This document shows positions 49,071 to 54,300 of a stretch of DNA of 64,000 bases, in pieces (the first letter of the stretch is position 1; every line of letters begins with the position of its first letter). The notes beneath the pieces were generated by a model that did not search any database, was not told the origin of the DNA, and saw only the letters and a program-made list of their open reading frames with translations. Position numbers and translations under genes: made by a program. Origin of the DNA: Candidatus Multivorans sp. (GTDB lineage Bacteria > Acidobacteriota > Thermoanaerobaculia > Multivoradales > Multivoraceae); assembly GCA_965238135.1 (NCBI GenBank), contig OZ250177.1:2336599-2400598 (forward strand), written 5' to 3'.

Positions 49071-49319
49071 CTACATGCTGCGGCGGTACTCGCCGCCGAC
49101 CGGGTACAGCGCGTTCGAGATCTGACCCAAGGAGCAGTGCTTCACGGACTCCATCGGTTCCTGAAACACGTTGCCGCGCCGCCGCGCCACCTCTTGAAGC
49201 CGCTCCAGGCTCGCCGCTGAGCCCCCGCCGTGGCGGCGGTGGAAGGCAGCAAGGCTCCCCATCTGCTGCTGCTCCTCGTCCGTCAAACGGATGAGCTCGG
49301 CCTCGACCGGCCAGATCAC
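49071..49319 (-). pseudogene. Displaced, diverged duplicate of the 3' end of icmF (last ~82 codons), open frame retained
   Basis: DNA ~80-85% identical to 51363..51610 beginning exactly at the stop codon (CTACATGCTGCGGCGGTACTCGCC); peptide ...LQEVARRRGNVFQEPMESVKHCSLGQISNALYPVGGEYRRSM vs IcmF C-terminus ...LQEVARRRGNVFEELMETVKHCSLGQISDALYRVGGEYRRSM. Confidence 0.7.
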
Positions 49320-49400
49320 CTACTATGGTGGAGAATCAACATCGGGTCTTCAGAGGATCATTCCCGCTGCCGACAATGAGGCCCATACAGGGAGGTAGGC

Positions 49401-51329: not shown

Positions 51330-51362
51330 GAATGGACCCTGGCAGTTGCTGCGGGACGGCGC

Positions 51363-54300
51363 CTACATGCTGCGGCGGTACTCGCCACCGACGCGGTACA
51401 GCGCGTCCGAGATCTGGCCGAGCGAACAGTGCTTCACCGTCTCCATCAGTTCCTCGAACACGTTGCCGCGCCGCCGCGCCACCTCTTGCAGACGCGCTAG
51501 CGCCGCCGGGGCCCGCTCGCCGTGGTGGCGGTGGAAAGCGGTGAGGCTCTCGATCTGCTGCTGCTTCTCGCCGTCCGTCGAGCGGATGAGTTCCGCTGCG
51601 ACCGTCTCCGCGAACTCCTGGCCCTCGGCGAGGAAGGTGTTCACGCCGACCACGGGCAGGCTGCCGTCGTGCTTCTTCGTCTCGTACTCCATGCTCTCGT
51701 CCTGGATCTTGGAACGCTGGTACATCGTGTCCATCGCCGCCAGCACGCCGCCGCGCTCGGCCAGGCGCTCGAACTCCAGGAATACTGCCTGCTCCACCGC
51801 ATCGGTCAGTTGATCCAGGGCGAAGGACCCCTGCCACGGGTTCTCGCTCCGGTTGAGACCGAACTCCCGGTTGATGATCATCTGGATCGCCAGCGCCCGC
51901 CGCACGGACTGCTCGGTCGGCGTCGTGATCGCCTCGTCAAAGGCGTTCGTGTGCAGCGAGTTGCAGCGGTCGAGGATGCCGTAGAGCGCCTGCAGCGTGG
52001 TGCGGATGTCGTTGAACTGGATCTCCTGCGCGTGCAGCGAGCGACCGGAGGTCTGGATGTGGTACTTCAGCATCTGGCTGCGCGCCGAGGCGCCGTACCG
52101 CTGGCGCATCGCCCTCGCCCAGATGCGGCGCGCCACGCGGCCGATCACGGCGTACTCGGGGTCCATGCCGTTCGAGAAGAAGAAGGACAGGTTGGGGGCG
52201 AAGTCGTCGATCGCCATGCCCCGCGCCAGGTAGTACTCGACGATCGTGAAGCCGTTGGCGAGTGTGAACGCCAACTGGGTGATCGGGTTCGCCCCGGCCT
52301 CGGCGATGTGGTACCCGCTGACCGAAGCGCTGTAGTAGTTACGGACGTTGTGATCGATGAAGAACTGCTGGACATCGCCCATCATCCGCAGTGAGAACTC
52401 GGTTGAGAAGATGCAGGTGTTCTGCGCCTGGTCCTCCTTCAGGATGTCCGCCTGCACCGTGCCCCGCACTCGCCCCAGGGCATCCGACCGGATCCGCTCG
52501 TAGATCTCGCGCTCCACCAAACGGTCGCCGGCGATGCCGAGCAGCGCCAGACCCAGGCCGTCGCTGCCTTCCGGCAACTCGCCGCGATAGACCGGCACGT
52601 CGCCGTCGTAGCGCCGGCTGATCTCTGCTCGAGCGCGCTCAAGGCCGCCGGTCTCCTGCAAATGGCATTCGACCTGCTGGTCGATCGCCGCGTTCATGAA
52701 GAAGGCGAGGATGGTCGGCGCAGGGCCGTTGATCGTCATCGACACCGAGGTCGCCGGATCGCATAGATCGAAGCCCGAGTACAGGCGTTTCATGTCGTCG
52801 ACCGTGGCGATCGACACGCCGGAGTTCCCGACCTTGCCGTAGATGTCGGGCCGCAGCCCCGGGTCCGAACCGTAGAGGGTGACCGAGTCGAAGGCCGTCG
52901 ACAGGCGGGAAGCCGGCTGCCCGCGCGACACATAGTGGAAGCGCTTGTTCGTGCGTTCCGCGATCCCCTCGCCGGCGAACATCCGGGTCGGCTCCTCGCC
53001 GCGCCGCCGGTAGGGATAGACGCCGGCGGTGTACGGATAGGCGCCCGGCAGGTTGTGCTTCATCAGGAAGCGCAGCAGGTCGCCCCAGTCGGAGTAGCTC
53101 GGCAGCGCCAGTTTCGGCATCCGCAGGTGGCTGAGGGTCGTGACGTAGTTGTCGCCCGTGATCTCGCGGCCGCGGACCGGGTAGCTGTAGCGCTCCGAGC
53201 GAGCGGCTGCCGCACGCTCGGGCCACTCCGCTAAGAGCTCCACCGCCTCAGCGCCGACTTCAAGAAGCGCCTCCTGGTAGCTCGTGCGCAGACGCGCGAC
53301 GCTCTCGTCCGGCGCGGTTTCGAGGACTGCCGATGGGTATGCGGCAAACGGCTTCGGCAGCTCCGGATCCTCCAGCTCGGCAAGCGCCCGGTAGCACGAC
53401 TGCGCCTTCGAGGCGGCCACAGCGCGAAGCTCGACATCGGCCTCGGCAGCCCGCGCGGCCTCCGCGATCTCGGCCAGGTAACGGCTGCGATGGTCGGGAA
53501 TCAGGGCCGCCGCCCGCGGTGCGCGTTCGTCGATGTCGATCTGCGGGGTCCAGGCGACCTCGTCCAGATCGAGCCGCTCGTGCAGCAACCGGCAGACATT
53601 CCAGAACATCCAGTTGACGCCGGGGTCCTGGAACTGGCTGGCGATCGTCGGGTAGACGGGCACCTCCTCGTCACCGGTCTGGAAGGCAAGGCGGTTGCGG
53701 CGCCACTGCTTGCGGATGTCGCGCAGCGCGTCCTGGCCGCCCCGCCGATCGAACTTGTTCAGCACGATCACGTCCGCGAAGTCGAGCATGTCGATCTTCT
53801 CGAGCTGGCTCGCCGCGCCGTAGTCCGAAGTCATCACGTACATCGAGAGATCCACCAGATCGACGATCTCGCTGTCGCTCTGACCGATGCCCGCGGTCTC
53901 GACCAGGACCAGGGAGAACCCGGACGCCTTGAGCAGCGACACCGCATCGCCCAGCACTTCGCTGGTCGCGCGGTGCTGGCGTCGCGTCGCCATCGACCGC
54001 ATGAACACCCGGTCGCTGCGCAAGCTGTTCATGCGGATTCGGTCGCCGAGCAGGGCGCCGCCGGTGCGACGCCGGGTCGGGTCGACCGCCAGCACGGCAA
54101 TCCGCCGCTCGGCGACGGCAGCCGGGAAGCACAGAACAAAGCGGTTCAGCAGCTCGTCGGCGACGCTGCTCTTGCCGGCGCCGCCGGTACCGGTCAGGCC
54201 CACGACCGGCACGCCGGCCCCCGCAAGCTGCCATTCCTTGCGCAGGCGCCGCAGCTCGGACTCGTTCACGGCGCCGCGCTCGATCGCGGACAGCAGCCGT

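Follow-up and report, generated by a model that had tools for sequence, protein, structure and literature searches.

How did an alkaline phosphatase gene come to stand between two copies of the 3' end of icmF, the gene for a fused isobutyryl-CoA mutase? The question is raised by a window of 64,000 nucleotides (nt) from Candidatus Multivorans sp. (contig OZ250177.1, positions 2,336,599 to 2,400,598), in which the last part of icmF recurs on the far side of a phoA-type gene. Probably the displaced copy (copy A) is an inherited, non-functional relic of one old event that placed phoA beside icmF and, in doing so, duplicated the last ~240 nt of icmF, the intact gene retaining the original end (copy B). 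The features concerned, by position in the window, are these:

46359..49058, plus strand: gene for a secreted protease of CARDB / M10-like type; it converges on the icmF fragment, with 12 nt between the two stops; presumed original neighbour of icmF
49071..49309, minus strand: copy A, the icmF' fragment, a pseudogene remnant comprising the last 79 codons and the stop of icmF, with a one-codon deletion and substitutions of invariant residues
49310..49400, plus strand: non-coding region upstream of phoA, 91% identical to that of the related locus L165; its left edge, 49309/49310, is the junction with the icmF' fragment
49401..51329, plus strand: gene for a phoA-type alkaline phosphatase (PF00245, E 2e-101), its product bearing a signal peptide and, C-terminally, a Cys-bounded domain of ~110 amino acids; convergent with icmF
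51363..51601, minus strand: copy B, the 3' end of intact icmF and the other arm of the repeat, retaining all residues conserved in relatives
51363..54827, minus strand: icmF, fused isobutyryl-CoA mutase of 1154 amino acids, recognized by its Pfam domains and 90-92% identical in amino acid sequence to family relatives

A search for repeats between 47 and 54 kb found one long direct repeat, 49062-49278 against 51354-51570, at 82% identity. Pairwise alignment by MAFFT places the beginning of the homology at the stop codon (CTA on the plus strand), from which it extends ~240 nt, and copy A is a direct copy of copy B, 82-83% identical and, like it, read on the minus strand; blastn gives 82.0% identity over 245 nt (E 1.2e-65). 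Similarity past the stop possibly continues for ~9 nt, which is not significant. The longest block of identity, 32 nt, is also the best-conserved part of the coding sequence (RRRGNVF), and the duplication is an old one. The icmF frame is open throughout copy A, as part of an open reading frame (ORF) of 82 codons. A preliminary description of this DNA had reported just such a duplicate, in the same orientation, beginning at the stop codon and open in frame, and it erred only in the far limit: the icmF-derived part ends at 49309 rather than 49319, and 49310-49319, the rest of the 82-codon ORF including its GTG, is not of icmF origin. The same description was correct in naming phoA the sole gene between the arms, which enclose 2.05 kb, and in seeing no integrase: the gene tables call none within 10 kb on either side, and the one mobility gene that they list is for an ISL3 transposase. 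On the other side of phoA, 33 nt of convergent spacer separate its stop from that of copy B. The protein encoded by icmF carries PF02310 (B12-binding), PF03308 (MeaB GTPase) and PF01642 (MM_CoA_mutase), in that order, with E values from 8e-18 to 7e-117, and is the fused isobutyryl-CoA mutase, distinct from the IcmF of type VI secretion. Could the repeat be an artefact of assembly, a worry that the preliminary description itself had voiced? This is very unlikely and in practice can be set aside, because the source is a circular metagenome contig of 4.45 Mb (ENA ERZ26167216) at ~24x, seen in two samples, and because remnants of the fragment appear in the independent assemblies of relatives. Both copies are real.

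The age of the arrangement may be read from those relatives, which are long contigs reached via homologues of PhoA and of the protease, together with one locus (L084) from a metagenome scan. The convergent phoA-icmF pair occurs in all recovered relatives that have icmF nearby, i.e., in 10 loci (L084, L164, L165, L168 and L170-L175), all of them from uncultured Acidobacteriota (Thermoanaerobaculia). The nearest named relative, Candidatus Multivorans thiocomprendens (L014), also belongs to the Thermoanaerobaculia within Acidobacteriota, and its IcmF is 90% identical in amino acid sequence. Gene orders around phoA are as follows:

L165: AMP-binding, phoA, icmF, DUF2911
L171: AMP-binding, phoA, icmF, with no DUF2911 gene called and GFO_IDH next
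L164: another CARDB gene, phoA, icmF
L172-L174: CARDB/cadherin gene, phoA, icmF
L168, L170 and L175: protease, phoA, icmF
L084: DUF2911, icmF, phoA, the contig ending inside phoA
L167 and L169: phoA present, no icmF within 10 kb

Relatives bearing the pair are colinear with the window through the intergenic spacer, and the order of protease (or other secreted-protein gene), remnant, phoA, icmF and DUF2911 is repeated in independent assemblies. When the DNA upstream of phoA was aligned, remnants of copy A were found in the same place, with varied internal deletions, in four of these loci. L168 keeps the stop-proximal 50-70 nt, L164 ~34-60 nt of the stop-proximal end, and L165 ~75-84 nt of the middle part, while L175 keeps the stop-proximal end, and the 17 nt that separate it from the protease (TCTAGGGAGaCCGCCCC) are those of the window; the spacer TCTAGGGAGGCCGCCCC between protease and fragment is likewise conserved in L175. 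The junction between icmF-derived sequence and the phoA upstream region, CCGGCCAGATCACCTACTAT, is common to the window, L164, L165 and L168, and is present with one substitution in L175; a 43-nt deletion relative to the window is likewise common to L164, L165 and L168. The remnants in four relatives and their common junction place a single truncation event before the split of these lineages. L170 has lost the entire intergenic region, of which 10 nt are left, and no remnant was detectable upstream of phoA in L171 or L172.

What lies farther upstream of phoA is more changeable. The slot is empty in L165 and L171, holds other CARDB/cadherin genes in L164 and L172, and holds the protease in L168, L170 and L175, with a protease orthologue in the same slot of L169 as well. 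The protease itself ranges from 873 to 1276 amino acids among relatives, and the copy number of a segment with a Cys-bounded domain varies.

Copy A shows how it has fared since. Its changes were polarised against seven functional icmF sequences of the family, and the 18 substitutions unique to it are distributed over the three codon positions as 6/4/8 (11 non-synonymous, 7 synonymous), against 8/3/39 for unique changes pooled over the seven functional copies. At positions invariant across 20 IcmF sequences, copy A has leucine for serine, has lost a lysine (the one-codon deletion), and has proline for leucine, the last of which puts a proline inside a conserved segment. Since its unique changes are even over codon positions and strike invariant residues, copy A is a decaying pseudogene subject to neutral drift, and the window holds the best-preserved version of the fragment. 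Its unique changes amount to 7.6% per site, about the level of third-position unique changes in functional lineages (~6-11%), which fits an origin near the star-like radiation of the family. In trees, copy A lies inside the icmF clade of the family (bootstrap of the clade 100% against outgroups) and joins that radiation, on a branch whose position neighbour-joining trees do not resolve (bootstrap at most 38%). The structure has no evident present function. The diverged arms could at most occasionally recombine, deleting phoA.

The preliminary description took phoA for the cargo of an island and ascribed to it a somewhat atypical codon usage at the 5' end, which the counts do not confirm. The gene has a GC fraction at third codon positions of 0.83, and its 5' dip to 0.78 is matched by similar dips in 7 of the 8 features compared. 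Besides adjoining icmF in the 10 related loci, phoA diverges in step with it: in the six relatives aligned (L164, L165, L168, L170, L171 and L172), the divergence of the two genes rises and falls together, phoA identity to the window being, for example, 90.5% in L165 (icmF 88-92%) and 74% in L171 (icmF 81-92%). The gene looks native because its composition is ordinary and its C-terminal domain is common to other secreted proteins of the same genomes. To judge from these comparisons, phoA is part of the backbone, neither recent nor mobile cargo. The stretch at 49310-49400 is conserved (91% to L165) about as well as coding sequence and is probably the regulatory region of phoA; it contains no sigma-70 consensus site and no match to Rfam. 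The wider region around the locus likewise yielded no consensus sites for promoters or terminators, no credible Rfam match and no transfer RNA (tRNA), and no tRNA occurs anywhere in the window.

Two observations on phoA may be recorded here. The ~110-amino-acid Cys-bounded domain, which has no Pfam match, is found at the C-terminus of PhoA (50980-51326), in the protease (~47755-48105), at the C-terminus of a 2661-amino-acid adhesin (55625-55970), and also in CARDB/cadherin proteins of relatives. The versions in PhoA and the adhesin are 37% identical. Perhaps the domain serves to sort or anchor the secreted proteins of the family. Also, an open frame of 525 codons runs antisense to phoA (49350-50927, minus strand). 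In L175, whose phoA lacks an internal piece that the window copy has, a minus-strand ORF of 463 amino acids across the phoA region was called in place of phoA. The antisense frame is likely to mislead annotation in this family, which is rich in GC.

What sort of event would leave such a trace? A duplicate of a gene's 3' end, in the same orientation, that brackets one gene with its upstream region and leaves the first gene intact is the footprint of an insertion at a gene end. In an ancestor of the family near Candidatus Multivorans, icmF would probably have stood back to back with the gene for the secreted protease. One rearrangement would then have set phoA directly behind the icmF stop, bringing along ~90 nt from upstream of the phosphatase gene, and the same event would have duplicated the last ~240 nt of icmF, leaving the gene whole (ending in copy B) and a headless copy A beyond phoA, beside the protease. 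The 12 nt between the stop of copy A and that of the protease gene are as expected if icmF once abutted the protease gene. Afterwards, copy A would have drifted without selection, trimmed by deletions in some lineages and becoming undetectable in others.

Several known systems resemble the locus in part. Tycheposons, the cargo islands of Prochlorococcus, are defined by their recombinases and by sites of the tRNA or transfer-messenger RNA type. With them the window shares the idea of a small cargo that adjoins a conserved gene and has repeats at its ends, but it has no recombinase and no site of the tRNA type. The suggestion of a tycheposon-like or tRNA-type island thus finds no support, there being no integrase near the pair, no tRNA, and nothing unusual in the composition of phoA. 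A closer likeness is to elements that integrate at gene 3' ends, such as e14 and phage 21 at icd and the islands found by TIGER/Islander (PMC12424338), where a duplicated 3' end flanks the insert, the gene stays intact and the displaced fragment sits at the far end. The window differs from the icd/e14 type in lacking an integrase, an identifiable identical core, presence/absence polymorphism, and evidence of a foreign in-frame end. Insertion with long target duplication (Furuta et al. 2010, PMC2853133; Nobusato/Furuta/Kobayashi) involves direct repeats of more than 30 bp around an insert of less than 20 kb without mobility genes. The window is like this in its ~240-nt repeats, which represent one host stretch, its 2.05-kb insert and its want of a mobility gene. 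The cases described there have repeats of 46-423 bp that are 91-100% identical, carry restriction-modification genes as cargo, and were proven against an uninserted genome; the window, in contrast, has a phosphatase and no restriction-modification genes, its repeats are 82% identical (the event being old), and no uninserted comparator is among the relatives recovered for it. The geometry suits insertion with long target duplication, and it suits just as well the entry of DNA bearing an icmF end by a single crossover or by site-specific integration.

The idea that something was inserted at a gene's 3' end, as first put forward in the preliminary description, therefore stands as regards the footprint and the 12 nt from stop to stop. 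It does not stand as regards a recent or mobile phoA cargo, given the pair in 10 loci and a divergence that tracks that of icmF, and the same arrangement in relatives, with eroded remnants, points to an ancient event by the criterion that the description itself had set. Nor is there a sign of its element-borne replacement 3' end: identity of copy B to relatives has no discontinuity at 51610 to mark a foreign end, though the power of this test is limited, and the changes in copy A look like neutral decay. An old integrase-mediated event may still lie behind the structure.

A number of points weigh against a single old insertion of phoA. The uninterrupted junction of icmF with the protease that one would wish to see, and that the preliminary description proposed to look for, was found in none of the relatives recovered in the searches, so that the direction of the event (phoA as the thing inserted) is something we infer from geometry only. 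L014 was considered as an empty site. It does lack phoA, but homology ends exactly at the icmF stop, and the DNA beyond is unrelated and has no Pfam matches. The ratio of non-synonymous to synonymous change (dN/dS) between copies A and B is 0.25, a weaker signal of decay than pure decay from identical copies would give, and the third-position share of their differences is 0.54, where pure decay would give ~0.46 and two functional genes ~0.68. Also, copy A is markedly well kept: over 84 nt, it is 86% identical to the functional consensus, as against 68% for the remnant in L165. Perhaps the arms differed modestly at birth, with a foreign 3' end involved, or perhaps gene conversion partly refreshed copy A. 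Three loci (L170, L171 and L172) have the phoA-icmF pair without a detectable remnant, which we read as loss (clearly so in L170), but the pair could be older than the fragment. All tests of decay and origin are limited to ~240 nt.

The dN/dS value was at first taken for the mark of a young, foreign fragment, but most of that signal disappeared once the changes were polarised. Taken with the absence of the protease from L165, it had suggested a private insert of 5.4 kb in the window, ending in a young foreign icmF fragment. This was rejected in view of the protease in the same slot of L168, L170 and L175, by the remnants in L164, L165, L168 and L175, and by the neutral pattern of change. A further candidate, an ancestral operon of icmF and an acyl-CoA synthetase gene split by insertions, found no support.

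Other histories would produce much the same locus. An element with an integrase and its own replacement icmF 3' end might have integrated site-specifically, as e14 and phage 21 do at icd, and later lost everything except phoA. The geometry fits a pair of attachment sites (attL/attR) with the gene restored, a 32-nt identical block is common to the arms, and the third-position share of 0.54 and dN/dS of 0.25 would suit arms that had already diverged at birth; moreover, icmF 3' fragments flank small cassettes in other phyla, and in one of these (L035) the fragment differs from the resident end by 2/0/10 over codon positions. However, no integrase is called in the window or near the pair in related loci, no empty site was found, copy B runs without discontinuity against relatives, and phoA, of ordinary composition, looks native. 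Two scans of viral contigs, undertaken with a phage attachment site (attP) in mind and of narrow sensitivity, found no icmF 3' ends. This history is possible but unlikely. It is rather less probable still that phoA and icmF were already together and that the fragment came in with the protease side from a relative without phoA, through homologous recombination on the left and an illegitimate join upstream of phoA (homology-facilitated illegitimate recombination). The slot before phoA is recombinationally active, its content varying among relatives; the identity of the DNA to its left is mosaic (97-99% to L168 over 41176-45051, 81-89% beside it); and some members have the pair with no detectable remnant. 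But the donor that this requires, with the protease abutting icmF, was not seen, the remnants in L164 and L165 lie beside different upstream genes and yet have the same phoA-side junction, and a stop-codon end 12 nt from a convergent stop is explained no better than by a single insertion of phoA.

A purely local origin, in which phoA and the icmF 3' end were duplicated in tandem and deletions came after, or in which copy A is the trace of a deleted second full-length icmF, would account for the place of copy A within the family icmF clade and for unique changes that resemble neutral decay from a sequence of family type, and there is a near-tandem duplication of an icmF end in L015 (383 nt, 86% identity, 210-nt gap). 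We think it improbable, because at least two further precise deletions would be needed to leave one phoA and a fragment ending at its stop beside the protease, and none of the relatives showed another phoA or a longer remnant of icmF. The integrase-decay, one-sided-import and local-duplication histories are each less parsimonious than a single event. Hardly credible, finally, is that copy A is kept because it is useful, as a micro-protein of 63 amino acids or as part of the regulation of phoA. The frame is open, the gene caller predicts a 63-amino-acid ORF within it, a change from isoleucine to methionine supplies an ATG with GAGGAG 9 nt upstream, and the remnants in relatives are in worse condition than copy A. 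Yet its unique changes are even over codon positions and include the proline in a conserved segment, it has no match in Pfam, and most of the fragment has been deleted in relatives. Queried with the 78-amino-acid fragment, the protein database yielded no donor: the only matches were the fragment itself and an IcmF cut short by the end of its contig.

The one mobility gene near the repeat belongs to an ISL3 element at 45052-46352, 6 nt upstream of the start codon (ATG) of the protease, with 23-nt inverted repeats starting GGCTCTTC and a transposase split into ORFs of 294 and 105 amino acids. Elements of this family usually duplicate 8 bp of target; here the flanks have only a 3-bp repeat (GGA). 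L168 has the uninterrupted site, GGGCGGAATCATG, where the window has the element, and still has its remnant of the fragment. Delivery of the fragment by ISL3 was considered and rejected, as the window contains only the element's own two inverted repeats, with no third near the fragment, and the insertion sequence is absent from L168. The ISL3 element is a later insertion, separate from the repeat.

To the left of the repeat, the window is mosaic over 37100-45051: identity to L168 is 97-99% over 41176-45051 and 81-89% on both sides, L175 is 94% identical over 37342-42224, and L167 is 94-95% identical over parts of 38493-41147. One tract of high identity ends exactly at the ISL3 insertion. The tracts look like recent homologous recombination between lineages. 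To the right, the 8-kb adhesin gene (55622-63607) is absent at this position in L084, L164, L168, L170 and L175, and DUF2911 adjoins the GFO_IDH gene in L164, L168, L170 and L175 (where the neighbour was called). Several relatives have an adhesin-like gene, 77-83% identical at its 3' end, between MFS and 2-Hacid_dh genes. The position of the adhesin is either a second variable slot or that of a relocated gene.

Is the end of icmF a place where such things happen more widely? Some 141 icmF loci offer 1 kb or more of sequence downstream of the gene, and four of them, mutually unrelated and not counting the window, carry fragments of their own icmF 3' end on the same strand:

L015 (Lysobacter metagenome-assembled genome), 13177-14137: near-tandem duplicate, 383 nt at 86% identity after a 210-nt gap
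L035 (Bacteroidia), 13292-14118: toxin-antitoxin-like pair, then a 105-nt fragment
L050 (Hymenobacter terrenus), 13267-16162: DUF6000 and PD-(D/E)XK gene, 177-nt fragment, unknown gene, 90-nt fragment
L107, 10305-13122: HEPN/nucleotidyltransferase, fragment, HigB/HigA, fragment, 262-amino-acid gene, fragment

The loci are Bacteroidota-like, apart from the Lysobacter one, and their fragments measure 50-380 nt and reach to the stop codon or near it: in L107 every fragment ends at the stop, and in L050 similarity fades a few bases short. Downstream of the L107 and L050 arrays, the ORFs of 150 amino acids or more include no integrase. The differences of the L035 fragment from the resident copy are almost all at third positions, and the two ends look as if they were derived from different functional genes. 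Cis-mobilizable elements, which lack an integrase, are flanked by att-like repeats and can stack in arrays by tandem accretion at att sites, resemble the arrays of L107 and L050; the window differs from them in being a single old unit with no sign of a helper element.

It is conceivable, if doubtful, that the icmF 3' end is a recurrent landing site across phyla for cassettes without a recombinase, each trailed by a fresh fragment ending at the stop and together building arrays, and that the phoA of the window is an old example. If true, this would imply a mechanism of capture not yet recognised, by a recombinase acting in trans or by single-crossover capture of circular DNA via a conserved gene end. 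If the pattern holds, it would bear on how small accessory cassettes (toxin-antitoxin and defence-like) move without a recombinase of their own.

The scar in the window is an ordinary, old genomic one, a further example of the geometry already described for insertion with duplication. It cautions that a duplicate of a gene end need not mark a mobile island, and it offers a worked example of how comparison with relatives and counts by codon position can date such a scar. Within one family of uncultured Acidobacteriota, it records how a phosphatase gene and a mutase gene became neighbours.

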